From Candidatus Omnitrophota bacterium (GTDB lineage: Bacteria; Omnitrophota; Gorgyraeia; 1-14-0-20-64-10), in assembly GCA_016177405.1 (NCBI GenBank), contig JACOVG010000004.1, positions 18,674-82,673 on the forward strand: a stretch of 64,000 nucleotides of DNA. The letters run 5' to 3'. Position 1 is the first letter of the stretch; the number at the start of each line of letters is the position of its first letter. Of this stretch, positions 97-44,867 are shown piece by piece. A program made the translations under genes and the position numbers. The notes beneath the pieces were generated by a model. It worked only from the letters and a program-made list of their open reading frames with translations. It did no database searches and was not told where the DNA came from.

Positions 97-567
97 TTAA
101 CGGTCATGGTTGGCTGCAAAATCGGCAATTCGTTCAAGCTCCTTCGGAAGCAGCCCGGCCGGGTCCACGCCGACCAAGGCAAGACCTCGGCCAATCGTGA
201 GACGCCTTCCCTTCTTGGGCTCAAGCCGAATGGCCGGACGTCCCAATTCTTTCTTGAAACCCTCCACGAGAATCAGATCCACGCGCCCCTTCATGAGGGT
301 GACGGCCCGCGCCAAGGGGATCTCCTCGGAAGTCTGAAAGACCCAGGCCGCCTGCCTGGGCGAGATCACGGCCACCACCCCGGCGCCGGCCCGGGTGTGG
401 CGCCAGCTGTCCTTGCCGGGGTGATCCATCTCAAAACCGTGGTGCGCGTGCTTGACGGTGCCGACCCGCAGGCCTTTGGAACGCAAGCGGGGGATCAGCT
501 TCTCGATCAAGGTGGTCTTGCCGGAGCCGGAGGAGCCGGCCACGCGCACCACGCAAGGCTTAGCCAT
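97..567 (-). CDS. mobB: molybdopterin-guanine dinucleotide biosynthesis adapter protein MobB
   Basis: Walker A P-loop GSSGSGKTTL near the N-terminus and about 155 aa, typical of MobB. The ORF track start at 639 overlaps moeA by 80 nt. The internal ATG giving MAKPCVVRVAGSSGSGKTT (567) leaves a 4-nt gap after the moeA stop, so that start is preferred. Confidence 0.82.
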   Translation of the reverse strand: MAKPCVVRVAGSSGSGKTTLIEKLIPRLRSKGLRVGTVKHAHHGFEMDHPGKDSWRHTRAGAGVVAVISPRQAAWVFQTSEEIPLARAVTLMKGRVDLILVEGFKKELGRPAIRLEPKKGRRLTIGRGLALVGVDPAGLLPKELERIADFAANHDR

Positions 568-1771
568 TGAATAAAAGAACCTCCACGGTTTTTCCTGCCG
601 GAATGAAGGGGCAATCCTCCGGCGCCACCACAAAGGCATTGGCCTGGGCGAGGGCCTGCATCATGGCGGAGCCCTGCTTCTCGGTGGGGGCCGCTTCCAG
701 GAAGCCGTCGCTTCCGGCCGACACCCGGGCCGTCAGGAAATGTCTTCGGTCATCCTTCTTGTGAAGATCCTGGGTCAGGCGCGCCTTGGCGTATCTGGGC
801 TTCGCCCGCGGTTTTCCTTCCAGCCGGCGGATGAGCGGCTCAATAAAGATGAGGAAGCCCACCACGCACGAGATGGGGTTTCCGGGAAGCCCAAAGATCC
901 ACGTGGGGCCCAGGCGCCCGCACAAGAGGGGCTTGCCTGGCTTCATCGCCACCTGCCAGAAGAGGGTTTCCATTCCGAGCTCCCGCAAGACCTGTTTCAC
1001 ATGGTCATGGGAGCCCACCGAAACCCCGCCGGAAACCAGCAAGAGATCTCTTCCCAATCCCGTCCGAATTTGTTTGGTGATGGCGGCGGGATCGTCGGGG
1101 ACAACCCCCAAGTCATCGCAGGTACTGCCCCCTGCTCTAAGCAGGCTTTTCAGGGTAATCCGGTTGCTGTCGTAAATTTGTCCCGGCCTGAGGGGAGCGC
1201 CTGGGGCGGCCAGCTCGCTCCCTGTGGCCAAGAGACTCACCCTGGCGCGCCGATGGACCGGCACCTCCCGGATCCCCGCCGAGGCCAGAAGGGCCAGGCG
1301 CTGGGGGTTGAGCCTTAGGCCCGGCTCAAGGAGCACCTGGCCGCGGCGCACATCCTCTCCTTGACGGCGCACATGCCTGCCGGGGTCAACCGGCCCGCGG
1401 ATCTCCACCGCGCCGTCGCGCAGCCGCCCATCCTCCAGCATCAGGACCGAGTCGGCGCCCGGCGGAAGCGGCGCGCCGGTCATGATCTTGACCGCCGTCC
1501 CTGGGGCCACCGGTTTGTCTTGCCAGCCGCCCGCGGCCACCTCGCCCGCCACCGGCAGCTTCACCGGGCGCTCGGCCCTGGCCGTTTGGGTCTCGCCGGC
1601 ACGCAGGGCGTAGCCGTCCATCGCCGAGTTGTCAAAGGGAGGCAGGTCGATGGGCGCGGTGATGGGCTTGGCCAAGACAAAACCTTCCGCCGCCTCCAAG
1701 GGCAGAGGCTCGGCGGCCAGCGGTTCAATCCGCTCTTCGATCCTTCGCCAGGCCTCTTCCACGGAGATCAC
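560..1771 (-). CDS. moeA: molybdopterin molybdenumtransferase MoeA
   Basis: MoeA signature region PITAPIDLPPFDNSAMDGYALRAGE and gephyrin-like domains. The likely start is the GTG at 1771 (GVRVISVEEA), which overlaps the upstream TGA as GTGA. The 485-aa track ORF carries a low-complexity N-terminal extension that is probably not translated. Confidence 0.82.
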   Translation of the reverse strand: MISVEEAWRRIEERIEPLAAEPLPLEAAEGFVLAKPITAPIDLPPFDNSAMDGYALRAGETQTARAERPVKLPVAGEVAAGGWQDKPVAPGTAVKIMTGAPLPPGADSVLMLEDGRLRDGAVEIRGPVDPGRHVRRQGEDVRRGQVLLEPGLRLNPQRLALLASAGIREVPVHRRARVSLLATGSELAAPGAPLRPGQIYDSNRITLKSLLRAGGSTCDDLGVVPDDPAAITKQIRTGLGRDLLLVSGGVSVGSHDHVKQVLRELGMETLFWQVAMKPGKPLLCGRLGPTWIFGLPGNPISCVVGFLIFIEPLIRRLEGKPRAKPRYAKARLTQDLHKKDDRRHFLTARVSAGSDGFLEAAPTEKQGSAMMQALAQANAFVVAPEDCPFIPAGKTVEVLLFNG

Positions 1772-2502
1772 GCGAACACCGCCTTGATTGCCGCGACCGC
1801 TAAGACGACCGCCAGCAGCCGGCGCAGGGCCGCTCCTGAAAAGCGCCGCGCTCCCAGGCGGGAACCGAGAAGACCGCCCGCGCACGCCACAACCGTAAGC
1901 CCAAGCCATGGCCCAGCCAGAGACAGCCCCTGCGCCGAGCGCCCCATCAACCCAGCCACGGAGTTGACCAGGATGAAGAAGGCGGAGGTCGCGGAGGCCT
2001 GCTTGGGGCTGGCCCATTTCTTAAAGAGAAGCAGGGGAGACAAGAAGATCCCTCCGCCAATCCCAACCATCCCTGACAAGAACCCCACCCCGGCACCTGA
2101 AGGAAGCGCCACCGCGAGGGACGGCGCTGCCTGGGCCGTTGATTCCGGAAGTTTGATCCACAGCCGCCAGGCGGCCGCCGCAAGAACCCCGGCCAAAAGC
2201 CACTCGTAGGCCCCCGGCGATATCCGGAGCCATCCGCCCATCCAAGCGGCAGGAACCGAGGCCGCGGCAAACGGCCAGGTGAGCCGCAGGGAGAGATGGC
2301 CTGCCCTGGTGAAATGAAAGAGGGCGATCCCGGAGACAAGGCAGTTCAGCACCAGGGCGCTGGCCGCCATCGCGGCAGGGGGAAGCGACATCCAAGAAAG
2401 AACAGCCAGGTATCCGCTTGCCCCGCCGTGGCCCACCGCCGAATAGAGGAAGGCCACGAAAAAGATGCCGGGTAAAACCGCCCAGGGAAAACTACTGTCC
2501 AT
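1768..2502 (-). CDS. TauE/SafE (DUF81) family anion permease
   Basis: Polytopic membrane protein with two Gly-rich DUF81 repeats (AVGHGGASGY and GMVGIGGGIF). It sits inside the Moco cluster. Confidence 0.75.
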   Translation of the reverse strand: MDSSFPWAVLPGIFFVAFLYSAVGHGGASGYLAVLSWMSLPPAAMAASALVLNCLVSGIALFHFTRAGHLSLRLTWPFAAASVPAAWMGGWLRISPGAYEWLLAGVLAAAAWRLWIKLPESTAQAAPSLAVALPSGAGVGFLSGMVGIGGGIFLSPLLLFKKWASPKQASATSAFFILVNSVAGLMGRSAQGLSLAGPWLGLTVVACAGGLLGSRLGARRFSGAALRRLLAVVLAVAAIKAVFA

Positions 2503-3004
2503 CGTGGGATTTCCCTTCCACCATCTGGAGGGCGTGCGGCAAGAGGGGCAGGAGAACCTTCAGGCACTCCCGAACCCCTCGTGGAGAGCCGGGGAGATTG
2601 ACGATGAGCGTCTTTCCGCGCTGGCCGGCCGCGGCCCTGGAAAGCCAGGCCTTGGGGTTTCGCCTGGCCGTCTCCACCCGCATCGCCTCGGGCAGGCCGG
2701 GGATCGGCCGGTTCACCACCGCCCAAGTGGCTTCGGGGGTGACGTCCCGGGGCCCGAGGCCGGTGCCGCCGGTCGTCACCACCAGCGCCAGTTTCAGGCG
2801 GTCGGAAAAATCAATGAGGCACTTTTCAATCCTTCGGCGCTCATCGGGGATGAGGGCCGTTTGAGCAACGGCGAATCCCGCCTTCTCCAAAATCTTCTGG
2901 ATGAGCCCGGTGGCGGTATCGGCCCGTTTTCCCAGGGAGCGGCTGTCGCTGACCGTGACGATTCCCGCCACTAAACCGTCGGCGGGCAGGCCCGCTTGCC
3001 TCAT
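2492..3004 (-). CDS. mogA: molybdenum cofactor biosynthesis protein MogA/MoaB family
   Basis: MogA/MoaB fold motifs (LALVVTTGGTGLGPRDVTPEA). The ATG at 3004 overlaps the moaC stop as ATGA, giving 170 aa. The upstream part of the 251-aa track ORF is low-complexity Gly/Arg/Asp. Confidence 0.78.
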   Translation of the reverse strand: MRQAGLPADGLVAGIVTVSDSRSLGKRADTATGLIQKILEKAGFAVAQTALIPDERRRIEKCLIDFSDRLKLALVVTTGGTGLGPRDVTPEATWAVVNRPIPGLPEAMRVETARRNPKAWLSRAAAGQRGKTLIVNLPGSPRGVRECLKVLLPLLPHALQMVEGKSHDGQ

Positions 3005-3447
3005 CCGCGCCTCCAAGTTCCGCTCTTTCCGCCGGATTTGCTCGTAAGAAGCAACCGGCGGATCACGATGCCGCGCTCTAAGCCCTTCAGCATGTCGTAG
3101 ACCGTCAAGGCAGCCACCGCCGCGGCGGTCATCGCCTCCATCTCCGGCCCGGTGGGGGCCGTGGTGATGACCTCGGATTCGATCACCACCGCCCGCGAGG
3201 TAAGATTGCAGCGCACCTGAATTTGACTGACAGGAATCGGGTGGCACAGCGGGATAAGGTGGGCTGTCTGTTTGGCCGCCAGGATTCCGGCGGCCTGCGC
3301 CGCGGGGATCACCTCCCCCTTGGGAACCCTTCCGGCCCGCAGGGCTTTCAAGGTCGCGGGTTTCATGACGAGCTCACAGCGGGCCGCCGCCTTCCGGACG
3401 GTCGCCGGCTTGGCGCTCACATCGGCCATCCGAATCTGGCCGCGCAT
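3001..3447 (-). CDS. moaC: cyclic pyranopterin monophosphate synthase MoaC
   Basis: Conserved MoaC core (MADVSAKPATVRKAAA, LIPLCHPIP, TGPEMEAMTAAAVAALTVYDM) and about 148 aa. Confidence 0.9.
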   Translation of the reverse strand: MRGQIRMADVSAKPATVRKAAARCELVMKPATLKALRAGRVPKGEVIPAAQAAGILAAKQTAHLIPLCHPIPVSQIQVRCNLTSRAVVIESEVITTAPTGPEMEAMTAAAVAALTVYDMLKGLERGIVIRRLLLTSKSGGKSGTWRRG

Positions 3448-3450
3448 CCC

Positions 3451-4434
3451 CTACCCTCCCACTCCCGCCATGCACAGCCGCGCGGATCCGGTCTCGCGCC
3501 GAAACATCCCGTGCATTTCAGGTTTTGCCGCCACGGCCCGAAGGATTTGTTTGGCCAGCCGCGCCGCGTCGACCTTGGGCCGCAGCGCCTCTTTAAGATC
3601 AACGGCGGAATCGTCGTCCAGGCAGGGCCTCAACTGGCCGGAAGCGGTCAGCCGCAGGCGGTTGCATCCGGCGCAGAAGGCCTGGGTCACCGCGCCGATC
3701 ACCCCGACAGTCCCCTTCGCCCCGGCCCATCGAAACGTTCGGGCAGGGCCGCAGCCGGCCGCGGGCTCGGCCGGCTCAAGCGGTCCCAGGGCCGTCAGGC
3801 GCTCCAGGATCTCCCGGGAGCTGACCAGACGCTCTCGGGTGAAGTATTCACCGATGGGCATCAGCTCGATGAAGCGGACATGCAGGGGCCGCTCCCAGGC
3901 CAGGCGGGCCATGGGGACGATCTCATCGTCGTTTACCCCGCGCATGACCACGACGTTGATCTTGACCGGGGCAAGCCCCGCCTCCAAAGCGGCCTCGATT
4001 CCGGCTAAGACATCGTCGATCTTCCCGAAGCGGGTGACCGCGGCGAAGCGCTGGGGGTCCAGGGTGTCCAGGCTGACGTTGACCCGTTTTAATCCCGCGC
4101 GGGCCAACACGCCGGCCTGCCGCGCGAGGAGAACGCCGTTGGTGGTCAGGGCCAGGTCCCTCAAGCCGGGCACCTGGGCCAATCCGGCAACCAGATCGGT
4201 GAGCCCTGGCCGAAGAAGGGGCTCCCCTCCGGTCAAACGCACCCGGGTCAACCCCAGCTCGGCCCCCGCCCGGACCACCTCAAGGATCTCTTCAAAACGG
4301 AGGATCTCCTGGCGGGGCAGCCAGGAAACGGGTTCTCGCGGCAGGCAATAAACGCAGCGAAGGTTACAGCGGTCGGTGACCGAGATCCGAAGATACTCGA
4401 TCCGCCGGCCGAAGGAATCCAAAAGCGGCTTCAT
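3451..4434 (-). CDS. moaA: GTP 3',8-cyclase MoaA (radical SAM)
   Basis: Radical SAM CNLRCVYC motif; a C-terminal second cluster (CAGCNRLRL) and GG motif are consistent with MoaA. The ATG at 4434 (MKPLLD) is preceded by GGAAAGGAG 7 nt upstream. The track start at 4449 is a TTG. Confidence 0.9.
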   Translation of the reverse strand: MKPLLDSFGRRIEYLRISVTDRCNLRCVYCLPREPVSWLPRQEILRFEEILEVVRAGAELGLTRVRLTGGEPLLRPGLTDLVAGLAQVPGLRDLALTTNGVLLARQAGVLARAGLKRVNVSLDTLDPQRFAAVTRFGKIDDVLAGIEAALEAGLAPVKINVVVMRGVNDDEIVPMARLAWERPLHVRFIELMPIGEYFTRERLVSSREILERLTALGPLEPAEPAAGCGPARTFRWAGAKGTVGVIGAVTQAFCAGCNRLRLTASGQLRPCLDDDSAVDLKEALRPKVDAARLAKQILRAVAAKPEMHGMFRRETGSARLCMAGVGG

Positions 4435-4627
4435 TCTTCTCCTTTCCAAGCACGAGGAGGCCGAATCGTTTCCTCATCGGCCCGTCCGCCAACGATCTGT
4501 GGCGGAAGGGGCCCCTGCGCCGTGCCGGCCAAGACTTTTTTGGCGGGGTTAGGCCCAGAGGCTCGGAGATATCCTAACGATCAAGCCAAATGGTACGTCA
4601 AGCGAAAGGAAGAGACTATGACCCAGA
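4435..4627 (-). ncRNA. candidate molybdenum cofactor (Moco) riboswitch in the moaA leader
   Basis: A 190-nt structured leader sits between the ferredoxin gene stop and moaA. On the minus strand it contains CUCCGAGCC..CUGGGCC elements and an anti-RBS CCUCCU 15 nt upstream that can pair with the moaA RBS AAGGAG. This matches the usual context and expression platform of Moco RNA motifs, but no covariance model was run. Confidence 0.3.
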
Positions 4628-5620
4628 TCATATTATCCGGATGGCGGCGGGCTGGTTCACCGCCTCGCACGCCTTCACGCAAATCCCGCAGCCGTCGCAG
4701 GCCGAGGCAACGATGACCGGCCGGCGGCTATCCAGAAGGATTGCCTTTTCCCGCAGGGGACAACGCAGATGGCAAAGCTGACAATCCACCCCTGACCAGG
4801 CCAGGCAGCGCGCGACATCCAAGACCGCCAGCCGTTGACCGGTTTTGGGGCCGGCCGGATCTGAAAAAAGGCCTCTCACGCCGGCCGCCAGCTCCTGGGG
4901 TGCCCGCCGCAGAAAGGTCCGGCGGTCCATTCCCGCGCCTGATTTGTCCCGCGCAGTTTTCGCCAAGGCCAGAAGCTCTTCCTGGGTCCAATGCTCGCGT
5001 CCTGTGACCACCTCAGAGAGCCCGTTCAGCTTTCGGTGTCCGGCCTCGCCGGGCGCGGTGGGCCAGCCGCGCCGCTTCATTCGGGCAGCCATCCACAGGT
5101 CCCACAGCAGCCGGAACCTCTCCCGGATCAGCTCATCCTCCATGGGGCTTTCCCCGCCGATGGTTCGCCGGCGGTCATAGGCGAAGGCGGGGTCGAGCAT
5201 GTCGTCGGCGCGCATCAGCTCCTTCCTAAGGAAGGTCATAAGCCCCGGGCGGTCCAGGAAGCGTTCCGGCGGCAGCCCGACAAGAAGAAGCGCCGCGGAC
5301 CCTTTTGAAACGAAGAGCTCGCAGTCCTCGGCCTTGCGGCTCTCGGAGCTTCGCACCGATACCCGCCGGAGGCGCCCGTCAAGTCCGGGGAATTCCCGGA
5401 GGCGCCCCGTGAAGAGCTCTTCCAGACCCATCCCCCGGAAGGTTTGGGCCGCGAGATCCGTGAAGGCTTCTTCCCGGCCTTCTTTTCTCTCATAGATCAA
5501 ATCCCGCTTCTCATGAAAATCTTTGAGGGGCGCGGGGTTGCCCGAGGCCTCCTGATCCTTCAAGACCAGGAAAACGGCCTCCTCCATCAGCTCCGGATCC
5601 ATGTGGAGCTCCGGCATCAT
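4628..5620 (-). CDS. di-cluster [4Fe-4S] ferredoxin-domain protein with an N-terminal domain of unknown function
   Basis: The C-terminal 100 aa carry two Cys clusters (CLAWSGVDCQLCHLRCP and CDGCGICVKAC), preceded by an internal MDRRTFLRRAP twin-arginine-like motif. The N-terminal 230 aa are unrecognised. RBS AGGAGA lies 9 nt upstream of the ATG at 5620, which overlaps the TorD-like stop as ATGA. Confidence 0.6.
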   Translation of the reverse strand: MMPELHMDPELMEEAVFLVLKDQEASGNPAPLKDFHEKRDLIYERKEGREEAFTDLAAQTFRGMGLEELFTGRLREFPGLDGRLRRVSVRSSESRKAEDCELFVSKGSAALLLVGLPPERFLDRPGLMTFLRKELMRADDMLDPAFAYDRRRTIGGESPMEDELIRERFRLLWDLWMAARMKRRGWPTAPGEAGHRKLNGLSEVVTGREHWTQEELLALAKTARDKSGAGMDRRTFLRRAPQELAAGVRGLFSDPAGPKTGQRLAVLDVARCLAWSGVDCQLCHLRCPLREKAILLDSRRPVIVASACDGCGICVKACEAVNQPAAIRII

Positions 5621-6372
5621 CCCGATTTCTCCTGGTCATTTGAGCAGGCCGCGCAGCCGGGCGTTTCCTCCTGCGGGAGCCTTAACGGCAGATCGTGCGA
5701 CCCGGTGGACACTCCCATCCGCGCGCACTCCCCAACGAGCCACGCGAGGGTCAGGTTGGCTGTCAGCTCCAGAAGGCTTCCCTCCGCCGCCCGGGAGAGC
5801 CGCGAGGCAAAGGCGCTCCCCCAGCGGCCCAGATGATCGGCCAGGAACTGCCGGGCCGCTTCACGGCTAAGCTGGGCGCGCTCCTCTTGGCCCTCGTCCA
5901 AGGCCAGGGCCTCCTTATAAAGGAGAAAGGCCATGAACTCGCATTCGGCCGCGATGTGGTCGGCCCGCTCGTGGGAGAGCCTCGAGACCTGCAGACCGAA
6001 GGCCTGGTAGAAGGCGCAGATGTCCCCCAGCTCCTGCGGCTGGCGGTGGCTGTGGGGCTGGCCGTACTCCAGCTCATACGGAGGGGCCGCCGAATGGACC
6101 GAGTGCCCGAAAACCCTCTCGTGCTGGGCGGTCCACTCTTCGAGGGAAGCCGCCCGAAGCGCCTCGATCAGGCGGCGGGCGGCGCCGGCGAGGCCGGCCT
6201 GGAAAAACTCCGCCACCTCGGCCAGCTTTCGGGGTTCGTCTCCGGCAAGCCACCGGGCCGTTTCCTCGTCCGGGTGGCGCAGGAGGAGAGCCAGCGCCTG
6301 GTAAACGGCGCTCCTGGCCAACAGGATCGAAAGAGCTTCAGATGGAATTTTGGTGGCTGTTGGGGCGGACAT
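5617..6372 (-). CDS. TorD/NarJ/DmsD-family redox enzyme maturation chaperone
   Basis: TorD-like signature (ERVFGHS, YELEYG, FMAFLLYKEA). The ATG at 6372 has GGAGGAG 8 nt upstream. The track start at 6420 has no RBS. Confidence 0.75.
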   Translation of the reverse strand: MSAPTATKIPSEALSILLARSAVYQALALLLRHPDEETARWLAGDEPRKLAEVAEFFQAGLAGAARRLIEALRAASLEEWTAQHERVFGHSVHSAAPPYELEYGQPHSHRQPQELGDICAFYQAFGLQVSRLSHERADHIAAECEFMAFLLYKEALALDEGQEERAQLSREAARQFLADHLGRWGSAFASRLSRAAEGSLLELTANLTLAWLVGECARMGVSTGSHDLPLRLPQEETPGCAACSNDQEKSG

Positions 6373-7576
6373 GGAAGGGCTCCTCCACCTGGGTGCGGAC
6401 CAGCTCTTGGCCGCCTTCACCGTAGCCGATCACCGTGTCGTTGTAGAGGCTGAAGGGTTTTCCGTGAATGACCGTCTCATAAACCTTGGGACCCTCCTGG
6501 ATCTCGTAGCGGAAGATGATCCGGTTGGTCCTCCGGAAAAGCTGAAGCACTGCCAGAAGCTCCCGGCTGGGGGCGCGATAGCTTTCGATCGCGGCGTCCA
6601 CCCCGGGGCCGAACATCTGCTTCAAATAGCCGCGGGGCACCCAGCGCGGCGGGATGTAGTAGCCGTTGGGAGCAGTGCCAAACTGCGGGTACAGCGGCAG
6701 GGCGACCTTGGCCACCTTGACCAGGTAGTAGATTGGGTTGTAGCGGTCCTCGGCCCAGCCTCCATCCTGGTCAAGCCGGACCAGCCCCTGCAGGCGGATC
6801 TGCCCGATGCAGGAGGCCATGCAACGGGTCTCCATGGGCACCCCGCCCGTCTCCGGGTCCTTGCCCTCGACGCGGGGGTAGCAGGCAATGCACTTTTCGC
6901 TCACGCGGGTGCTGGCGCGGTACATCGCCTTCTTGTAGGGACAGGCCTCCACGCACTTGCGGTAGCCGCGGCAGCGCTCTTGGTCGATCAGGACGATGCC
7001 GTCCTCGGGCCGCTTGTAGATCGCCTGGCGCGGGCAGGCGGCCAGGCACCCGGGGTAGGTGCAGTGGTTGCACAGCCGGGCCAGATAAAAGAACCAGGTC
7101 TTGTGCTCCGGCAGTGAAACCCCTTCCTTGTGGAACTCCATCGGCTTGCCCGGTTCTCCCACCGGGGTATCCTCGTAAATATTGGGGAAACGCCACTCCT
7201 CATCGGTAGGCAGGTACCCCAAGACCCTCTGGGGCTGCGGCCCCACACGACGCTCGGCCGCCTCGAAGATCGTCTTGCCCTGGTAGACGCCATTTTCCCA
7301 GCGCTGGGTCTCGCCGCTGGCCTCCTCCAGCATCTTCAGGATCTTCACGTCCCAGAACTGGGGATAGCCGCCGTAGGGTTTGGTCTCGACGTTGTTCCAC
7401 CACATGTACTCCTGTCCCTTGGAAAAGGTCCAGGTGGACTTGCAGGCCATCGTGCAGGTCTGACAGCCGATGCAGCGGTTCAAATTGAAGACAAAGGCGA
7501 ACTGCCGCTTGGGGAAGGCCGCCTCGTAGGGGTACGACATCCGGCGGCCAAGCTGCCAGTTAAAGACCTTGGGCAT
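6338..7576 (-). CDS. nxrB: type II DMSO reductase family Fe-S beta subunit, NxrB/NarH-like
   Basis: Four ferredoxin-type Cys clusters (CIGCQTCTMAC, CNHCTYPGCLAACP, CRGYRKCVEACP, CIACYPR). The N-terminus MPKVFNWQLGRRMSYPYEAAFPKRQFAFVFNLNRC and the 412-aa length resemble periplasmic NxrB of Nitrospira, Nitrospina and anammox. AGGAGG lies 6 nt upstream of the ATG at 7576. Confidence 0.85.
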   Translation of the reverse strand: MPKVFNWQLGRRMSYPYEAAFPKRQFAFVFNLNRCIGCQTCTMACKSTWTFSKGQEYMWWNNVETKPYGGYPQFWDVKILKMLEEASGETQRWENGVYQGKTIFEAAERRVGPQPQRVLGYLPTDEEWRFPNIYEDTPVGEPGKPMEFHKEGVSLPEHKTWFFYLARLCNHCTYPGCLAACPRQAIYKRPEDGIVLIDQERCRGYRKCVEACPYKKAMYRASTRVSEKCIACYPRVEGKDPETGGVPMETRCMASCIGQIRLQGLVRLDQDGGWAEDRYNPIYYLVKVAKVALPLYPQFGTAPNGYYIPPRWVPRGYLKQMFGPGVDAAIESYRAPSRELLAVLQLFRRTNRIIFRYEIQEGPKVYETVIHGKPFSLYNDTVIGYGEGGQELVRTQVEEPFHVRPNSHQNSI

Positions 7577-7823
7577 GACAAACCTCCTGAATGACGGCAT
7601 CCACATACGCATCCCCCTTTTGCCTCCAGACCAGATGCGGCCCGCGGTAGAAGGGGTTCCTGAACATGGCGCGCAGCTTCTCCCGCGGCCAGCCGGAGCG
7701 CAGGAATTCCTCCGCGAAGGTGACGGCCATCTCCTTGAGGGAGGCCTCGTCCGGCGCCGGGAGCACGATGCCGGTCAGCTCCATCGGGTCGTCCGGCTCC
7801 GGTTCCTTCAGCGGGATGGCCAT
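7560..7823 (-). CDS. small hypothetical protein (87 aa) between alpha and beta subunit genes
   Basis: Its ATG overlaps the nxrA stop as TGATG with GGAGG 4 nt upstream, and its 3' end overlaps the nxrB start by 17 nt. It is acidic, has no TM segment and no recognised motif. Codon usage resembles its neighbours. Confidence 0.45.
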   Translation of the reverse strand: MAIPLKEPEPDDPMELTGIVLPAPDEASLKEMAVTFAEEFLRSGWPREKLRAMFRNPFYRGPHLVWRQKGDAYVDAVIQEVCHAQGL

Positions 7824-10800
7824 CACACCTCCAGGAATTTCCCCTCGAAGTACCGGCGCATGGTCTCATTTTCGTTGGAGGGGGTGTAGCCGGTCGCCGC
7901 CGGCTGCCAGATTCCCTGGCCGCCCAAACCGCCATCCTCGGCCTTGACGACCCGCACCAGGGTCTCCTTGGGAACGGTGTTCACCGCGTGGTTATCCGCC
8001 TCGCCGCCAAAGAGGAAGGACATGAAGACCTTCGCCTTGTGGAAGAGGGTGTCGGTCTGGTGCATCGGCATGTGCCAGTTGCGGGTCACCGACTGCTGGG
8101 AGCCGTAGCGGAAGTTGGCCTGGTAGCCGGTGTCGGCCGAGAGGGCGCGCCCATCCCTGCGCGTCTCGTGGGCCCGGACCGAGCGCTCGGTGGCGATGTA
8201 GGTGCCGTGCTTCATCATCACCACGTTGTACGGGTAGGCCGGGTTGTACCGGGCCCGCAGCATCAGCCGCGCCACCTTGTAGAAGGGGTCGCTGGGCTTG
8301 GCCCCGAGGTAGGGGCGGTCGGCCGGGTTGGCATCCACGTAGACGTAGTCGCCGTCGTTCAGCCCAAGGTCCTTGGCCGCTTCGGGGTTGATGTGGATCT
8401 GGTGCTCGCCCACGCCGGGGGCGCGCTTGTCCATCCGGTAAGGGTCGCCGAAGTTGGAATCCCAGATCTCGTGCCAGTCCACATTGCTCCAGAGGGAGTG
8501 CACCCGGTGCCGGCTCTTGGGGGTCAGGCAGTAGAACTTGAAGCCCTTCTCCCAAAGGAAGTTTTTGCTCTGCTTGACCTCGCCCCAGGGTTTCTTGACG
8601 TTGCGCACCGTCCGATCGTCCCAATGCTCGGCCGTCAGCGGGATCCCGTAGTCGCTGGGGCGGACGTAGGGGTTGCTGGAAACGATGACGTTGGGCAGGT
8701 AGGGGGTCGCCTCCGTCCCTTCCCGGTGGACAATGAAGTTTTCGCCGTACTCGATCGCCTCCGGCACATCCGAGTAGGCCGCGAGGCGTCCGCAGTCGGT
8801 GTAAAAGGGGAGGTCTTCATGGATTTGCTCCCAGAAGACCACCCGGGGGTACGTCCGAAAAAGCATCAGGGCCCCGCCGGGCGGGCCGTATCGGCCGGCC
8901 ATGATGTCGGAAAGCTTGTAGCCGCGGGTGGTGGTGCAGGCGTCCAGGAGGCGCTGGATGTAAACCTCGCGCTTGCCCTCCAGGGCAAAACGCCAGTAGT
9001 CCAGGATGCGGGCGTCCCCGGTGGTCTTGGCCAGGGCCTCGGCGATGCCGGCCAAAATCATCAGGTCGTCGCGGCTGTCAAAGATCGGCGGGATGCCCCC
9101 CTTCCAGATCTGGAGGAAGGGATTGGAGCAGGAGGCCGTCACCTCCAGCCCCTCGGACTCGAGCCAGCTGTTGGCCGGCAGGGCGATGTCCGAGTATTCG
9201 ATCGTGGCCGTCATCTGGATGTCCACCGAGAGGATCATCTCGACGTTGGGGTTGACGTTCTTGAGCATCTCGTAGGCCCACTTGGCGTTGTTGAGGAGGT
9301 TGACGTTGGTGAAGAGCATCGCCTTCGTGGGGGTGGGCATGTGGCTTTTTCCGGTGAAGACCTTGCGCCCGGCCTGGGGGGTCTCCACGATGAGCGGCTT
9401 GTCCCCGTGGTTCCAGTAGGCCGGCTCCTCATCCATGAAATGGGCGTGGGCGTGAATCTCCTTGCCGTCGACCGAGGGATCGAGGGTCGGATGGAAGGGG
9501 TCCTCGGCCACCCATCCCTTGAACCCGGGACCCGTCCAGGGAGAGCCCTGGAAGAGAGCCGCCTTGTAGTTTCCGGCCCAGGAGTAGCAGCCAGCCCCCG
9601 GCTTTCCGATGTTGCCGGTCAGCATGAGCGGCAGGTAGGCCGCCCGGTTGGCCTCGGTCGCGTGAAAGTAATGGTTGATTCCCTCCCCCTGGTGGATCGC
9701 CACCGGCTTGAGGGTGGCCATCTCCTTGGCCAGCTTCTCGATCTTTTCCTTGGGGGCCTGGGTGATCTCGGCCACGGAATCCAGGTCGTAATCCTTCAGA
9801 TGAATCTTGTAGAGGGTGAACAGGGTCATCACCTCGACGGTTTGGCCCTGGGTCGTCTTCACCTGGAAGGTCCCCTCCAGGGAGGGCTTCACCCCTCTTT
9901 GCGCCAGGCGCCGGCCCACCTCGTCGCGCGTGACGGCGGCCGGGGCGTTCGCCGCCTCGTCCCAGACCACAAAGTCTCCGAGCTTCTGGTACTGCGGTTC
10001 GGTCAGCCCCTGGATCTTGAAGCTGGCTCCCTCCTTGGAGAGCTGTCCCCGGTAGCCCGGGAAAATCTCATGGGCCCGAAGGCGCTTCAGGTTGTCGGTC
10101 CGGATGAGCAGGGGGAAATCGGTGTAGCCGGTCACAAACTCCCGGTCGTACCAGCCGTTGTCGATCAGGATCCGAGTGATCCCCAAAAAGAGGGCCGCGT
10201 CGGTCTGGGGGCGGATCGGGATCCAGTCGTCCGACTTGGAGGCCGGCGGGCTGTATTCGGGCGAGATCGTCACCACCCGCCCGCCCCGCTCCATGCACTC
10301 GATGAACCAGTGGGAGTCGGTCATCTTGTTCTCGCAGAGATTCTTGCCGTCCTGGATGATCAGCTTGGAGAAACGCAGGTCGTTGAAATCGCAGTCGGCG
10401 TTCTGCAGGCCGTGCACCCAGGGGTGGCCAGGCGCCTGGTCCCCATGCCAGGTGTAGTTGGACCAGGCCCTGCCGGCCAAGGAATCCTCCGGCTTGACCC
10501 CGCGCAGGTGAACGTCCAGCAGGGCCATGGTGTTGGCCAGCCGGTACATCCCGTACTTGCCGAAAACCCCCAGCAGGCCCATCCCGCCGCGGAACTTGAG
10601 CGTCCGGGTGCCGGCGCCCCGCATCGCCTCGATCATCTCCTCGGGATATCCCTGCGAGCGCAGGAGCTTTTTCCCCTCCTCGCCGGAGTAGCGCTTGGCG
10701 ATGGCCGCCAGGGCCCGGGCCACGTAGCCGTTCACCTCGTCCCAGGAGATTTTTTCAAAGCTGTCCAAACCCCGGGAGTCGAACTTGTATTTGGCCTTAT

Positions 10801-11263
10801 GGGCGGGGGTCAGCTCCGGGAAGCCATCGTCGGCCCACTGCCTCCAGCCCTTGCGGACGATGGGATGCTTCAACCGGTAGGGCCCGTACATCAGGCGGTG
10901 GAAGGTGAAGCCCTTGGCGCACTGGCGCGGGTTCCAGTTGGGGGTGGCGTGGTTGCCGTAAAGGTCGGCGTAGCTGGCGTAATCGTACTGGGAGCCCAGC
11001 CGCACCACGATGCCGTTGCGGACGTAGGCCAGAACCCGGCAGGCGTGCGTGTCGTTGGGCGAGCAGACCCATGAGAAGGTGCTGTCATACCGGTACTGAT
11101 CGCGGTAAAGCTTCTCCCAATCCCGCGAGGGGTAATGGGCCAGGGGATTCTCCACGTCGGCCACCGGCTCCAGGGCCCAGAGCTTGAGCTCCCGGGACGC
11201 CAGATAGGCGGCGGCTCCGGTCGCGCCGGCGAGCTTGATGAATTGACGGCGGGTAAGGATCAT
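7823..11263 (-). CDS. nxrA: molybdopterin oxidoreductase alpha subunit, NxrA/NarG-like (periplasmic, Tat-exported)
   Basis: 1146 aa from the ATG at 11263. It has a Tat leader (MILTRRQFIKLAGATGAAAYLASR) and an N-terminal Fe-S Cys/His cluster region (WVCSPNDTHACRV). MGD-binding domains extend throughout, and the length and blocks match periplasmic-type NXR alpha subunits. The upstream part of the 1172-aa track ORF is untranslated low-complexity sequence. Confidence 0.85.
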   Translation of the reverse strand: MILTRRQFIKLAGATGAAAYLASRELKLWALEPVADVENPLAHYPSRDWEKLYRDQYRYDSTFSWVCSPNDTHACRVLAYVRNGIVVRLGSQYDYASYADLYGNHATPNWNPRQCAKGFTFHRLMYGPYRLKHPIVRKGWRQWADDGFPELTPAHKAKYKFDSRGLDSFEKISWDEVNGYVARALAAIAKRYSGEEGKKLLRSQGYPEEMIEAMRGAGTRTLKFRGGMGLLGVFGKYGMYRLANTMALLDVHLRGVKPEDSLAGRAWSNYTWHGDQAPGHPWVHGLQNADCDFNDLRFSKLIIQDGKNLCENKMTDSHWFIECMERGGRVVTISPEYSPPASKSDDWIPIRPQTDAALFLGITRILIDNGWYDREFVTGYTDFPLLIRTDNLKRLRAHEIFPGYRGQLSKEGASFKIQGLTEPQYQKLGDFVVWDEAANAPAAVTRDEVGRRLAQRGVKPSLEGTFQVKTTQGQTVEVMTLFTLYKIHLKDYDLDSVAEITQAPKEKIEKLAKEMATLKPVAIHQGEGINHYFHATEANRAAYLPLMLTGNIGKPGAGCYSWAGNYKAALFQGSPWTGPGFKGWVAEDPFHPTLDPSVDGKEIHAHAHFMDEEPAYWNHGDKPLIVETPQAGRKVFTGKSHMPTPTKAMLFTNVNLLNNAKWAYEMLKNVNPNVEMILSVDIQMTATIEYSDIALPANSWLESEGLEVTASCSNPFLQIWKGGIPPIFDSRDDLMILAGIAEALAKTTGDARILDYWRFALEGKREVYIQRLLDACTTTRGYKLSDIMAGRYGPPGGALMLFRTYPRVVFWEQIHEDLPFYTDCGRLAAYSDVPEAIEYGENFIVHREGTEATPYLPNVIVSSNPYVRPSDYGIPLTAEHWDDRTVRNVKKPWGEVKQSKNFLWEKGFKFYCLTPKSRHRVHSLWSNVDWHEIWDSNFGDPYRMDKRAPGVGEHQIHINPEAAKDLGLNDGDYVYVDANPADRPYLGAKPSDPFYKVARLMLRARYNPAYPYNVVMMKHGTYIATERSVRAHETRRDGRALSADTGYQANFRYGSQQSVTRNWHMPMHQTDTLFHKAKVFMSFLFGGEADNHAVNTVPKETLVRVVKAEDGGLGGQGIWQPAATGYTPSNENETMRRYFEGKFLEV

Positions 11264-11267
11264 CTCT

Positions 11268-12653
11268 TCAGGGCTCCAGTTGAAGCTCGTTCCAGATCGA
11301 GACGTTCTTCTGCCCGTTGCGGTCCTGGTGGGCGCCGTCAAAGATGGCGAAGGCCGCCGAGGCCGTCGCGCCGGGCGCCAGGGGAAGATCCTCCTGGTTC
11401 CGGGAAATGGGCCTTAAGAAAACCAGCCGCCAGCGCCCATCCTGCCAAAGGCCGCGGGCCTGAACCTGCTGGAGCCGGGCCTCCCGCGAGGTGAGGGTGC
11501 CCGGACCCTTGGCGTTGGCCTCCTCGGCGGCCTGGGGCGTTTCCGGCAAGGCCTTCCAGTTCCAGATCCAGACAGGCGCCTGCCGATCTCCCATGCCGAA
11601 GAAGGGGGGGTCGGCTGCCGCCGACAGCTGGATCGCCGCTCCATCCGAAAAGGACTGCGGCGTCAGGGTGGAGTTGTCCCGGGCGGCGTCGCTCCACGTC
11701 AGGTGAAAGGCGAGCGCCTCGCCGTTGTGCAGGCAGCGCACCTCCACCGATTCGATCCGGTCGTCCCTCCACCACAAAGGGGTCAGGTTCACCGCCGCCG
11801 GCTTGATCCTCTTCCACGCGGGCGCCATCGGATCCAGGGGGATCTCCCCCTTCAGGCGGGAGGCCCGGATCGTCCGCCGCGCCAGGCGCGCCCTCTCCTC
11901 CGCCCCCGGCGGCGCCAGCGACTGCACGAAATGGACCAGATCCCAAACCTGCTCGTCCGTGTAGGCGCCGGCGTAACTGGGCATGGGAGAGCCGGGAAGG
12001 CCCGCGATGATCCGGCGGTAAAGATCGGCGCTTTGGGAAGACCCCTTGAAGATGCCGGCGGTGAGGTTGCGCGGGCGGATGGGGAAGCCCTGATTGTCCT
12101 GCATCACCTGCTGGCCGTCCCCTTTGCCTTGCAGGCCGTGGCAGGAGGCGCATCCCTGGGAAAAGAGGGCTCGGCCGCGGCCGGCGCTCTTGGCGTTCGA
12201 CGGGGTTTCCCGCGGCACGGGCACGATGGAGGCCGGGTCGGAGGGGGCCGGGGAGCCGGTGAGCTTGCGCACGTACCCCACGAGGGCCCAGCGCTCTTTC
12301 TCGGTCAGGGCCTCCCAGGAAGGCATCGCCGAACCGGGCATGCCGCGCGTGATGGCGAGGAACAAATCCTCGTCGGCCGCCTCCATGGTGCTGGTCGAGA
12401 CCAACCGAAATTCGTTTCGGGTGAAATCGCGCGGCTTGGGGTACAGAAGATAGGCCGCCGGGCCGTCCCCGGCGCCGGTCAACCCGTGGCAGAGGGCGCA
12501 CTGTTTCTCGTAGAGCTGTTGGCCTTCGGCTAAAAGCCCCGGCGCAGCTGCCGGCCGATCCTCTCCGGCCGCCGGCAGGGCCGCCGCGAGAATCATTCCA
12601 AGGAGCCCTAGGGTGAGTACCTTAGGAAGACTTGGTGGTGTCGCCGACATCAT
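11268..12653 (-). CDS. di-heme cytochrome c fused to an NxrC/EbdC-like gamma-subunit domain
   Basis: Signal peptide, then two CxxCH motifs (CALCHG, CASCHG) in the N-terminal 250 aa. The C-terminal 200 aa resemble heme-b gamma subunits of type II DMSO reductases (EB_dh-like, WxW, HNG region). The gene ends 4 nt before the nxrA start. Confidence 0.68.
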   Translation of the reverse strand: MMSATPPSLPKVLTLGLLGMILAAALPAAGEDRPAAAPGLLAEGQQLYEKQCALCHGLTGAGDGPAAYLLYPKPRDFTRNEFRLVSTSTMEAADEDLFLAITRGMPGSAMPSWEALTEKERWALVGYVRKLTGSPAPSDPASIVPVPRETPSNAKSAGRGRALFSQGCASCHGLQGKGDGQQVMQDNQGFPIRPRNLTAGIFKGSSQSADLYRRIIAGLPGSPMPSYAGAYTDEQVWDLVHFVQSLAPPGAEERARLARRTIRASRLKGEIPLDPMAPAWKRIKPAAVNLTPLWWRDDRIESVEVRCLHNGEALAFHLTWSDAARDNSTLTPQSFSDGAAIQLSAAADPPFFGMGDRQAPVWIWNWKALPETPQAAEEANAKGPGTLTSREARLQQVQARGLWQDGRWRLVFLRPISRNQEDLPLAPGATASAAFAIFDGAHQDRNGQKNVSIWNELQLEP

Positions 12654-12807
12654 CCTTGATTTGCTTGAGCCCCTTCTTGAATTCGGAAAAGGACTTTCCG
12701 ATCGAACGGGCGATCTCCGGCAGCCTCTTTGCCCCGAACAGAAGCAGCACGATGAACAGGATGAGCACCAGTTCCGGAATTCCGATGTTCTGAATGAACG
12801 CGAGCAT
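12622..12807 (-). CDS. tatA: twin-arginine translocase subunit TatA/E
   Basis: 61 aa with an N-terminal TM helix and the FGAKRLPEIARSIGKS motif, followed by an amphipathic helix. A strong RBS AAGGAGGTGA lies 7 nt upstream. Confidence 0.88.
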   Translation of the reverse strand: MLAFIQNIGIPELVLILFIVLLLFGAKRLPEIARSIGKSFSEFKKGLKQIKDDVGDTTKSS

Positions 12808-12936: not shown

Positions 12937-13425
12937 ATGCTGCGCCTCCACTCCAAGGGCTGTGAATATGCCATCCGGGCGCTGATCCACCTGGTTCGGC
13001 GACAATCATCCCGGAAGCTGCCGGTTTCCTTTGGGAAGCTCTGCCATAAAACCAAGACGCCGGAACCCTCCACCCGGAAGGTGTTCCAGCGAATGGTGCG
13101 AAAGGGTCTGCTGACCGCCGTGCCGGGACGGGGGGGCGGCTACCGGCTGGGCCTGCCGCCGGATAAGATCAGCGTCTTGAGCATCATTCAAACCGTGGAC
13201 GGTCCCAAGGCATTGGGCGGCTGCGTTCTGGGCCTGCCTGCCTGCGGCGGCCGCCGCCCCTGCCCCCTGCACCCGACCTGGAAGAAGACCAAACAAGAAC
13301 TGACGCGGGAGTTAAGATCTCACACGCTTCTGGATTTGGCCAAAAGGAACGGAAGAGGAAGTTCTAAAGGCGGTATTCGGTGCGGACCATGGACGGATGC
13401 TGGAAGAGCCCCAGGCCCAAGGTGA
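12937..13425 (+). CDS. Rrf2 family transcriptional regulator with 3-Cys Fe-S ligand motif (NsrR/IscR-like)
   Basis: N-terminal wHTH (MLRLHSKGCEYAIRALIHLV). The Cys triad CVLGLPACGGRRPCPLH has the C-x6-C-x5-C spacing of cluster-binding Rrf2 proteins. The functional C-terminus is probably near residue 145; the ORF tail overlaps the convergent gene. Confidence 0.78.
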   Translation: MLRLHSKGCEYAIRALIHLVRRQSSRKLPVSFGKLCHKTKTPEPSTRKVFQRMVRKGLLTAVPGRGGGYRLGLPPDKISVLSIIQTVDGPKALGGCVLGLPACGGRRPCPLHPTWKKTKQELTRELRSHTLLDLAKRNGRGSSKGGIRCGPWTDAGRAPGPR

Positions 13426-14974
13426 GCGTGGTCCAGGCCGCCATCGGCACGGCCAGCCACCCCCTCACCCTCTGCGGCATCGGAATCGGGCCGAATTCCC
13501 GCCGGATGGCCGAAAGGAGCTCCCGGGCCCTCTGCCTGGCAACCCGCGTGGGGCCCATCCAGACCGCCGGGCCCAGGGCCGGAAAGCTCTCCAGGATGTC
13601 CCTCCGGTAGCGCTCGGCCACCTCCCTAAGCCGCGCGTTGGAGCTGTCCTTCAGCCGGTGGTAGCCGAGGCGCCACGTTTCGATGGCCCGGACAATGGAG
13701 GGGCCCAGGCGATGGAAGTCCTGGCGGAAGCAGTCCCGCTGGATCGCCTGGACCTGGGGCGCCGTCATCGTGGGGTGATCCACCACATTGTAGAATCCGG
13801 TGCAGCGGCGGAAGAAGGCATCCCGGTCCTTCACGAATTTTTTGCGCAGGCGCCCCTGGGCGGTGATCCTCTCGTAAAAGGGGGTGCCCGGAACCGGCCC
13901 GTAGATGAGGAACTGCGCCAGGGTGGGCTCGAGGGCGAGCAGCTGGTCCAGCTCCTCTTGGATGATCTGGGGCGTCTGGTAGTCGAACCCCACGATCATC
14001 GACGCCAGCACGATGATCCCGTGGGCGCGCAGATCGGCGATCAGCTCGTCGATGGGCCGGCCCTGCTGTTTGGCGAAGTTGGAGCGCCTTCCCTCGTAGC
14101 CCATCCAGACCCCGGAGATCCCCATCTCCAGAAGCTCGGTGAGCGAATATTGGGAGAGGGCCTTGACGCTCGAGAAGACGAACATCGGATAGTCCGCCTT
14201 CGCCTGCCGCACGCAGTCCAGAAACTCCGTCGAGCGCCGCTTGTTGAGGAGGAAATCCTCGTCCAGGACGGTGAATTTGATGGAGGGCTTCCGAGCCCGG
14301 TAGTCCCGCAGGACCTTGAAGATGTCCCTTCCCTCGGGCAGCAGCCGGACGTGCTTGCGCTTGAAGAAGTGGGAGGTGCAGCAGAAATCACAGCCGTTGG
14401 GGCAGCCCAGCCCCGCGAAGATCATTCCGTTGTCGCCGATCGAGGTTGAAAAAACCTTCAGCCCATTGACGATCAGGGGGTGGTCGTAGGGCATGGCCTT
14501 CTCCGGCTCCCCCATCAGCCGGCGCAGGAAGCCCACCCCCTCCTCCCGGCAGATGTAATCCCCGTAGGGCGCAAGCTCCTCGTCCGGAAGGATCGTCCCA
14601 TAGCCGCCCAGGATGATCTTGGATTGCGGCGAGTGCTTCCGGATCAGCTCCACCACCCGCTTCATCCGGTGAAAGACCGCCAGCAAAAAGGAGACGCCCA
14701 CGTGGGAATAGCCGCGCTTAAGCTCCCGGATCAGCTCCCGCTCGGTGGGGTACTGGAGGACGACGGTGGGTATCTCCAGGTTGTGCGCGATGTACTCGAG
14801 GGAGAAATGGACCTGGTACGAGCGGGGGCTGAAACAGCCCTGCGCCCGGGTGATCTGCTCGTGCGCGAGCTCGTAGCCGACCGAGATGCCGTCGCCGTAG
14901 CGCCGGCCCAGGGGCCGGCAGACGCTGGTCAGCAGAAGCCGCCGGGGTAGAACTCCGTTGGGATGGGAAATCAT
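13364..14974 (-). CDS. B12-binding radical SAM protein (class B rSAM), paralog 1
   Basis: An N-terminal cobalamin-binding Rossmann region (KIILGGYGTI) precedes a radical SAM CPNGCDFC motif. It is about 536 aa, and about 35% of residues look shared with the second copy at 28135-29880. Confidence 0.8.
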   Translation of the reverse strand: MISHPNGVLPRRLLLTSVCRPLGRRYGDGISVGYELAHEQITRAQGCFSPRSYQVHFSLEYIAHNLEIPTVVLQYPTERELIRELKRGYSHVGVSFLLAVFHRMKRVVELIRKHSPQSKIILGGYGTILPDEELAPYGDYICREEGVGFLRRLMGEPEKAMPYDHPLIVNGLKVFSTSIGDNGMIFAGLGCPNGCDFCCTSHFFKRKHVRLLPEGRDIFKVLRDYRARKPSIKFTVLDEDFLLNKRRSTEFLDCVRQAKADYPMFVFSSVKALSQYSLTELLEMGISGVWMGYEGRRSNFAKQQGRPIDELIADLRAHGIIVLASMIVGFDYQTPQIIQEELDQLLALEPTLAQFLIYGPVPGTPFYERITAQGRLRKKFVKDRDAFFRRCTGFYNVVDHPTMTAPQVQAIQRDCFRQDFHRLGPSIVRAIETWRLGYHRLKDSSNARLREVAERYRRDILESFPALGPAVWMGPTRVARQRARELLSAIRREFGPIPMPQRVRGWLAVPMAAWTTLTLGLGLFQHPSMVRTEYRL

Positions 14975-29880: not shown

Positions 29881-29966
29881 GCCGCTCTCCAAGTGGACCT
29901 TAAAAAGAGCGCAGGCCCAAGAGCGCTCCTGGGCCTGCGCCAAACAACCGGTAAGGGTTTACGACC

Positions 29967-40441: not shown

Positions 40442-40873
40442 TTAAATGTGGAAGGTGAAGCGGTGGTTGGGGCTGGCGGCGTTTTCCTTGACCTGGGAGG
40501 CCAGGGCGCCCAGGGTGGTGGCCTTCAGGGTGGAGTCCACCGCCCGCTCCACCTGTTTCCAGACGGACGCGGTGGGATCCTTGGTCGAAACGGCTGAAGC
40601 CGCGTAAGCCAATCCCTTGGGCTCCAAGCACTTAAAGACAGCGCTCACAGAGAGCTGGTCGGCCGGCAGTTTAAGGCGGTAGCCGCCCCGGGGGCCTCGC
40701 TCCGCTTCCACGATACCTTCACGCCGCAGGCGGTTAAAGAGCTGTTCCAGGTAGCGGACCGGCAGGGATTGCCGCTTGGCCACGGCGGACAGCGTCACCG
40801 GACCGGCTCCCTGGTGAAGAGTCAGATCCACCAGCGCGCGCAGGGCGTAAGAGACGCGGGAAGGGGGTTTCAT
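40442..40873 (-). CDS. Rrf2 family transcriptional regulator, CymR-like (no Fe-S Cys triad)
   Basis: Rrf2 wHTH (SRVSYALRALVDLTL...VTLSAVAKRQSLPVRYLEQLFNRLRREGIV) with a single Cys. It is translationally coupled to cysK, as in CymR-CysK systems. Confidence 0.72.
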   Translation of the reverse strand: MKPPSRVSYALRALVDLTLHQGAGPVTLSAVAKRQSLPVRYLEQLFNRLRREGIVEAERGPRGGYRLKLPADQLSVSAVFKCLEPKGLAYAASAVSTKDPTASVWKQVERAVDSTLKATTLGALASQVKENAASPNHRFTFHI

Positions 40874-43089: not shown

Positions 43090-43090
43090 G

Positions 43091-44866
<1,776 letters not shown>

Positions 44867-44867
44867 G

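Follow-up and report, generated by a model that had tools for sequence, protein, structure and literature searches.

A predicted NXR-type gamma subunit that joins a di-haem cytochrome c to an NxrC/EbdC-type haem-b domain in an Omnitrophota contig

We analysed a stretch of 64,000 nucleotides (nt) from a Candidatus Omnitrophota bacterium (assembly GCA_016177405.1, contig JACOVG010000004.1, positions 18,674 to 82,673), referred to here as the window, in which an operon for a nitrite oxidoreductase (NXR)-type molybdoenzyme contains, directly ahead of the gene for the alpha subunit, a single open reading frame (ORF) that combines a di-haem cytochrome c with a haem-b domain of the NxrC/EbdC type. 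The domain composition of this protein, its conserved haem ligands, its operon context and the conserved position of the fused gene next to nxrA in several phyla are direct observations. We regard it as probable that the fused ORF is the gamma subunit of a periplasmic enzyme exported by the twin-arginine translocation (Tat) pathway, that it is itself exported by the Sec pathway, and that it carries three haems.

The alpha subunit encoded by the operon aligned from end to end with NXR-A of Kuenenia (7b04_B; 1806 bits, residues 1-1146 on 1-1146) and possesses a Tat signal; this full-length match therefore places the enzyme in the periplasmic group of NXRs from Nitrospira, Nitrospina and anammox bacteria. 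Its gene, nxrA, begins 4 nt past the stop codon of the fused gene.

Domain architecture, haem ligands and export signal

A first-pass annotation, made from the letters of the window alone, had described the product of the fused gene as a di-haem cytochrome c joined to an NxrC/EbdC-like domain, with a signal peptide and two CxxCH motifs in its N-terminal 250 or so amino acids (aa) and a C-terminal part resembling the gamma subunits of type II dimethyl sulfoxide (DMSO) reductases. This description was borne out by comparisons with Pfam, NCBIfam and the PDB and by Foldseek, with the qualification that the signal peptide is predicted only from the start codon that gives a protein of 461 aa. The features of the gene are as follows.

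11268..12653, minus strand: fused gamma, 461 aa, comprising a signal peptide, two cytochrome c domains and EB_dh (Pfam, NCBIfam, PDB and structural model)
12564..12653, minus strand: residues 1-30, predicted to be a Sec signal peptide or an N-terminal anchor (hydropathy heuristic)
12270..12533, minus strand: cytochrome c domain 1, residues 41-128 (Pfam; alignment with Kustc0457)
11916..12179, minus strand: cytochrome c domain 2, residues 159-246 (Pfam; alignment with 6h5l_B)
11307..11822, minus strand: EB_dh haem-b domain, residues 278-449 (Pfam; alignment with 7b04_C)

The gene runs on the minus strand from an ATG at 12653 to a TGA that ends at 11268. A check for a hidden frameshift or stop between the two halves found none, the 461 codons being continuous and free of internal stops, and the stop-to-stop frame contained no in-frame start further upstream of 12653.

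The N-terminal module matched the Pfam families Cytochrom_C (E 3e-27) and Cytochrome_CBB3 (E 3e-24), each in two stretches (41-128 and 159-246 for the latter), as well as the NCBIfam model TIGR00782 (ccoP; E 4e-14). The two haem c motifs are CALCH (residues 52-56, nt 12486-12500) and CASCH (residues 168-172, nt 12138-12152), both read on the minus strand. As distal ligands we predict M110 for the first haem c and M224 for the second, both of which align with the corresponding Met positions of Kustc0457, a di-haem cytochrome of Kuenenia to which we return below. In an alignment of 87 sequences all eight of these residues (C52, C55, H56, M110, C168, C171, H172 and M224) are invariant.

The C-terminal half is a relative of the EB_dh family (PF09459), which matched residues 278-449 with E 1.2e-18 and 68.5 bits against a gathering cut-off of 33.3, and TIGR03477, the NCBIfam model for the haem-b subunit of type II DMSO reductases, matched residues 268-458 (E 2e-36). 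In Kuenenia NXR-C, as in EbdC, haem b is ligated by a methionine and a lysine, Met155 and Lys305 in NXR-C (Chicano et al., PMC8387239). Counting along the alignment with 7b04_C, we assign to these two positions M354 (nt 11592-11594, in FFGMGDRQ) and K449 (nt 11307-11309, in RNGQKNVS), which are the predicted axial ligands and are invariant both in an alignment of 12 homologues and in that of 87, so that the Met/Lys pair anticipated by the first-pass annotation is present.

A sequence search of the PDB split the protein cleanly into residues 41-249, which matched Kustc0457, and residues 300-460, which matched NXR-C and EbdC. An AlphaFold 2 (AF2) model, for which the 87-sequence alignment served as input, had a mean predicted local distance difference test (pLDDT) value of 86 and a predicted template-modelling (pTM) score of 0.84; the latter indicates that the cytochrome and haem-b modules pack confidently in the model. 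The linker between the modules (residues 246-278) is conserved in the alignment and structured in the model.

Within EB_dh the window protein is without a loop of about 62 residues, the gap falling between W366-K367 and A376-E377 (residues 367-376, nt 11526-11555). The missing segment corresponds to residues ~173-226 of Kuenenia NXR-C and is present in nearly all fused homologues; EbdC likewise does without it. Some nine further cluster representatives, aligned across EB_dh in one unbroken stretch, seem to lack the loop as well; the deletion is a recurrent variant, not an error. In the closest relative of the window protein (P0002) the loop is of intermediate length.

The same protein has already been deposited publicly, under the name 'c-type cytochrome [Candidatus Omnitrophica bacterium]' (P0001), where it is annotated from M20 with a length of 442 aa and is present on six contigs; two of these were read in detail, each from a different sequencing run. 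The M20 start (region 12596-12653) deletes most of the signal peptide and leaves about 10 residues before the mature part. With the 461-aa start, at which the gene and the 3' end of tatA share 32 nt, the N-terminus reads MMSATPPSLPKVLTLGLLGMILAAALPAAG followed by EDRP, with putative cleavage before E31: K11 lies in the n-region, a hydrophobic core, about 18 residues long, spans positions 12-29 (the best 15-mer Kyte-Doolittle (KD) score at the N-terminus is 2.5), and A-A-G precedes E31, giving small residues at -3 and -1. The call combines a hydropathy heuristic with the -3/-1 rule. An N-terminal hydrophobic stretch was found by hydropathy in 75 of 82 homologues. C-type cytochromes require export, and because of this requirement and of the hydrophobic N-termini of the homologues the 461-aa start appears preferable to the public one.

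Whether the hydrophobic segment is removed after export is a separate matter. It is possible, though we think it doubtful, that it stays in place as a signal anchor and tethers the enzyme to the cytoplasmic membrane. The roughly 18 hydrophobic residues at positions 12-29 would suit such a role, the predicted signal peptide of Nitrospina NxrC overlaps a predicted transmembrane helix in an enzyme that is membrane-associated (PMC3578206), and a lipobox-like motif in 7 of the 82 homologues suggests lipid anchoring in some members; the A-A-G/E site, on the other hand, obeys the -3/-1 rule for signal peptidase I. Anchoring is compatible with a role of the protein as gamma subunit, and not opposed to it.

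Distribution of the fusion and its relation to known subunits

The window protein matched Kuenenia NXR-C (Kustd1704, 7B04 chain C) with a phmmer E of 4e-23 and a Foldseek E of 3e-16, and EbdC (2IVF chain C) with values of 6e-12 and 2e-16, respectively. In Foldseek the C-terminal module superposed on EbdC with a template-modelling (TM) score of 0.79 (target-normalised), and on Kuenenia NxrC too. All three proteins share the EB_dh beta-sandwich and the aligned Met/Lys ligands, and the window gene, like those of type II gamma subunits, shares an operon with the genes for alpha, beta and delta. NXR-C and EbdC, in contrast, are single-domain proteins of 214-322 aa with no c-type haem. The window protein is extended at the N-terminus by about 250 residues that carry two c haems, and a loop of about 60 aa shared by Kuenenia NxrC and most of the fused homologues is missing from it.

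The counterpart of the added module is Kustc0457 (6H5L chain B), which is the di-haem cytochrome c subunit in Kustc0458/7, an HAO-like nitrite reductase complex of Kuenenia. Residues 41-249 of the window protein aligned with residues 8-221 of Kustc0457, its whole chain, with E 1.6e-42, and Foldseek superposed the two with a TM score of 0.86, a root-mean-square deviation of 1.9 Å and 36% identity; both CxxCH motifs and both distal methionines are common to the two. Kustc0457 is a stand-alone protein, whereas in the window protein the same module is covalently joined to the haem-b domain.

The first-pass annotation had taken it that cytochromes c and NxrC are encoded by separate genes in known NXR loci, and had implied that the fusion is rare. 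The former holds in part. Cytochromes c and NxrC are separate genes for the operon-linked NxrC of Nitrospina (PMC3578206), for the stand-alone NxrC candidates of Nitrospira (PMC6606698) and in the Kuenenia nxr cluster, where NxrC is kustd1704 and the cytochromes are kustd1705 and kustd1707-1711; it fails for alt_NxrC2-4 of Nitrospina and alt_nxrC_2 of Nitrospira, discussed below, which combine both. The implied rarity has to be abandoned. The best 120 matches to the window protein among 5.8 billion proteins all possess the same three Pfam families (mostly 510-570 aa; few are named, and those mostly as Omnitrophota), exactly two CxxCH motifs occur in 87 of the 87 aligned homologues, and in a scan of one genome per species a relative is encoded in 213 genomes. 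Taxonomy was taken from the best 80 of these 213 genomes, which belong to Omnitrophota and Planctomycetota (mostly Phycisphaerae), with single metagenome-assembled genomes (MAGs) labelled Verrucomicrobia, Gemmatimonadota, Thermoanaerobaculia, Nitrospirae and Desulfobacterales.

To count gene orders we compared the proteins of the window operon with related loci by tblastn; 74 loci hold the alpha gene, and the median identity of alpha to the window protein is 72%. The fused gene lies at most 300 nt upstream of alpha in 45 of the 74 loci. In a further 23 there is an apparent gap of 470-660 nt, which we attribute to the unaligned C-terminal part of gamma; counting these, the fused gene would lie directly upstream of an nxrA-like gene in 68 of the 74. 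The order alpha-orf88-beta-delta-gamma is found in four loci, while an iron-sulfur (Fe-S) gene between gamma and alpha and a gap of 4.4 kb are each found in one. At one related locus (L039, 2809-9461; Nitrospirae MAG RBG_16_64_22) the same fused gamma follows an alpha subunit of the perchlorate reductase/EbdA-like type, which scored 363 bits to 5e7o_A and only 137 bits to NxrA. NXR is therefore not the sole user of the fused gamma module, which also serves other enzymes of the type II DMSO-reductase kind.

When the EB_dh domain alone was compared with 1.84 billion cluster representatives, 95 of the best 150 matches were at least 430 aa long. We inspected six short matches as candidates for unfused close relatives of NxrC, and rejected all six as N-terminally truncated fragments of fusions because they start inside the second cytochrome domain. 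Fused proteins thus dominate the branch of the EB_dh family to which the window protein belongs. The same branch includes an N-terminally anchored protein with two EB_dh domains in tandem (P0282), a protein with additional N-terminal multihaem motifs before the di-haem/EB_dh unit (P0270), and one with a histidine-kinase-like N-terminus that may be a gene-calling merge (P0297).

We regard the window protein as an ordinary representative of a large catalogued family, albeit with a shortened loop, and not as a new invention, and the fused form would be the standard operon-encoded gamma subunit of a large NXR-like clade in uncultured bacteria. In the open-access literature we found no published description of the Omnitrophota/Phycisphaerae fused gamma subunit as such, no paper linking Phycisphaerae, nitrite oxidoreductase and NxrC, and, in the Omnitrophica/Omnitrophota papers that we read, no mention of the gamma subunit.

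An architecture with c haem and haem b in one protein has been noted in nitrite oxidisers since 2013. In Nitrospina gracilis, alt_NxrC2-4 combine one to three cytochrome c sites with a haem-b domain (Lucker et al. 2013, PMC3578206), and in Nitrospira moscoviensis an NxrC paralogue, the product of alt_nxrC_2, is listed as a cytochrome c with two haems (Mundinger et al. 2019, PMC6606698). The latter protein (NITMOv2_3640) has a signal peptide, one transmembrane helix and a mass of 66.8 kDa; its gene, which is highly transcribed, lies away from nxrAB in a cluster with genes for a bd-like oxidase and two cytochromes c (PMC6606698). The window protein resembles the alt_NxrC proteins in having a signal peptide and in uniting c-haem sites and a haem-b domain within a single polypeptide. 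The alt_NxrC_2 protein is larger, however, and has a C-terminal helix, whereas by our hydropathy heuristic such a helix is present in 0 of 87 members of the window family, no 19-residue segment after the first CxxCH reaching a KD score of 1.6 in the window protein or its 87 homologues; and the window gene lies directly upstream of nxrA, inside the operon, whereas the alt_NxrC_2 gene lies away from nxrAB. The window family is here set apart from alt_NxrC by the published descriptions.

On this precedent one could propose that the fused protein is an accessory carrier or docking protein, and that the true core gamma subunit is encoded elsewhere in a genome of which only 64 kb was examined; alt_NxrC proteins with c haem and haem b do exist beside stand-alone NxrC, and their authors deemed them non-core (PMC3578206, PMC6606698). 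We consider this quite unlikely, given that the fused gene sits 4 nt upstream of nxrA within the operon, that the window contains no other EB_dh gene, that its arrangement with nxrA is conserved in some 70 loci from several phyla, that the C-terminal transmembrane helix of the alt_NxrC_2 type is absent from all 87 homologues, and that the Met/Lys ligands and an NxrC-like sequence have been kept. As for the fusion being an artefact of a frameshift, a missed stop or a chimeric assembly of two genes, there is next to no chance of it: the frame is continuous, the occurrence of the identical protein on six contigs, two of them from different sequencing runs, excludes a frameshift or chimera, and the architecture recurs in 120 of 120 best homologues and in 213 species genomes, with two CxxCH motifs in 87 of 87 and a conserved linker.

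Electron path and implications

In the scheme we propose, the fused gamma subunit would be exported via Sec, separately from the Tat-exported alpha subunit. Its haem b would be held in the NxrC/EbdC-type beta-sandwich with predicted Met354/Lys449 ligation, and two His/Met c haems (H56/M110 and H172/M224) would be held in the N-terminal Kustc0457/CcoP-like module. Electrons would then pass from the bis(molybdopterin guanine dinucleotide) molybdenum cofactor (Mo-bisMGD) and FS0 in NxrA through FS1-FS4 in NxrB to haem b, from there to one haem c and then the other, and finally to an external partner: a soluble cytochrome, perhaps, or else an oxidase or a complex that oxidises quinol. In nitrate reduction they would take the same path backwards. 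We infer, within this scheme, the assembly of gamma with NxrAB, the placement of the three haems within electron-transfer distance, the partner and the direction of the electrons. The suggestion of the first-pass annotation that the fusion hard-wires the path between the c haems and haem b is plausible because the AF2 model, with its pTM of 0.84, is compact.

Several points weigh against assigning the fused protein as the gamma subunit of such an enzyme. Its match to TIGR03477 scored 125 bits, which is under the curated cut-off of 170. In Nitrospira, alt_NxrC_2 is transcribed about 4-fold below the stand-alone NxrC_2 and was not considered a core subunit by the authors (PMC6606698), and therefore a protein with c haem and haem b need not be the core gamma. 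The enzyme of Omnitrophica (OP3) was read by Speth et al. 2016 as a hydrogen-driven nitrate reductase (PMC4821891), and nothing in the window decides between nitrite oxidation and nitrate reduction. Finally, the gamma family is known from sequence and models.

According to the Kuenenia structure paper, electrons from NXR must pass to an unidentified partner beyond NxrC (PMC8387239). It is tempting to treat the fusion as a 'Rosetta stone' that marks Kustc0457/CcoP-like di-haem cytochromes as the partners of NxrC and, at the same time, reveals a widespread self-wired NXR clade, though we judge this unlikely. Were it true, the docking partner at the haem-b cleft of NxrC would be identified also where the two proteins are separate, including anammox bacteria, in which Kustc0457 is part of a proposed nitrite reductase; moreover, a self-wired periplasmic NXR in Omnitrophota, Phycisphaerae and other uncultured phyla could oxidise nitrite.

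A link of this kind specific to Kustc0457 was tried and proved weak. A search with Kustc0457, whose sequence was reconstructed from its PDB alignment with the window protein, returned 4757 matches, of which the best 120 are all stand-alone di-haem cytochromes of 170-370 aa. The neighbours of such stand-alone relatives vary, from HAO-like multihaem proteins with COX1, through cbb3 COX1 with FixO, to unrelated genes, and the N-terminal module therefore belongs to a broad adaptor family. Because stand-alone relatives adjoin HAO-like or oxidase genes, and because of the CcoP-like NCBIfam pattern, the module looks like a general docking or relay cytochrome for high-potential periplasmic partners.

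A natural family of NxrC-di-haem fusions nonetheless offers a testable hint to the type of partner that NxrC uses, and provides a simpler three-subunit system for biochemistry. It also marks out many genomes of Omnitrophota and Phycisphaerae as encoding a complete, self-contained NXR-type module, which is relevant to the assignment of nitrite oxidation or nitrate reduction in groundwater and anammox reactors. The window copy itself introduces no new principle.

Operon and surrounding window

The operon lies on the minus strand in the order tatA-gamma-nxrA-orf88-nxrB-nxrD-FeS-moaA-moaC-moaB-moeA-mobB, with a regulatory gene divergent from it. Its genes other than gamma, and that regulator, are as follows.

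12937..13425, plus strand: Rrf2-family regulator, divergent from the tatA-nxr operon (Pfam Rrf2, E 2e-27)
12622..12807, minus strand: tatA, 61 aa, first gene of the operon (Pfam TatA_B_E, E 5e-19; the precomputed contig annotation agrees)
7823..11263, minus strand: nxrA-type molybdopterin alpha subunit, 1146 aa (TAT_signal and Molybdopterin domains)
7560..7826, minus strand: conserved small ORF of 88 aa, orf88 (tblastn; its GTG start overlaps the nxrA stop as GTGA)
6338..7612, minus strand: nxrB-type iron-sulfur beta subunit, start codon uncertain (TIGR03478, E 3e-77; Fer4_11)
5617..6420, minus strand: nxrD, a TorD/NarJ-type chaperone (Nitrate_red_del, E 3e-20; TIGR03482, E 5e-22)
4628..5620, minus strand: conserved 330-aa Fe-S protein, lacking a signal sequence and bearing a 4Fe-4S motif at its C-terminus (weak Fer4 and NapG/NapF-like matches)
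3451-4449, minus strand: moaA (Pfam)
3001-3447, minus strand: moaC (Pfam)
2492-3247, minus strand: moaB/mog (Pfam)
560-2017, minus strand: moeA (Pfam)
97-639, minus strand: mobB (Pfam)

The small ORF orf88 was found by tblastn at the equivalent position in most related loci (29-80% identity), and scanning it against Pfam returned no family; Kuenenia likewise has two small ORFs of unknown function, kustd1701 and kustd1702, between nxrA and nxrB. The gene for the 330-aa Fe-S protein, which may have a role in maturation, lies downstream of nxrD in most related NXR-like loci, and in two of them (L003 and L004) its counterpart is split into two genes of 306 and 121 aa. With its own tatA and a full set of molybdenum-cofactor genes (97-4449) flanking the NXR genes, the operon forms a self-contained module. 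The arrangement at L003 and L004 is similar, with a gene for a TauE-family exporter at the end.

The Rrf2 family, to which the divergent regulator belongs, includes the nitric oxide sensor NsrR. One homologue of the fused protein (P0020) carries an Rrf2 domain within the same predicted protein, which suggests that the adjacency of regulator and gamma recurs elsewhere.

Within the 64 kb of the window, the fused gene encodes the sole EB_dh domain and the sole c-type cytochrome. A search of all six-frame ORFs of the window with family-built hidden Markov models found no second gamma subunit or cytochrome, and the only other CxxCH motif belongs to the Fe-S protein (4628-5620). Pfam scans of the larger window ORFs, which covered most though not all of them, found no oxidase. 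Base composition is uniform across the window, at about 64% G+C, and thus gives no hint of a foreign island.

Elsewhere in the window the genes serve housekeeping functions and sulfate assimilation. On the minus strand, at 13364-14974 and 28135-29943, two genes encode B12-binding radical SAM proteins, and the first of these genes is just upstream of that for the Rrf2 regulator and of the nxr operon. Further along, also on the minus strand, a cluster of the sulfate-assimilation type (40873-51406) includes the following genes.

50243-51406, minus strand: ATP sulfurylase
45863-47623, minus strand: fused siroheme synthase/HemD
43091-44866, minus strand: NIR_SIR sulfite/nitrite reductase
40873-41808, minus strand: pyridoxal phosphate (PLP)-dependent enzyme

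The NIR_SIR enzyme at 43091-44866 could in principle be an assimilatory nitrite reductase.

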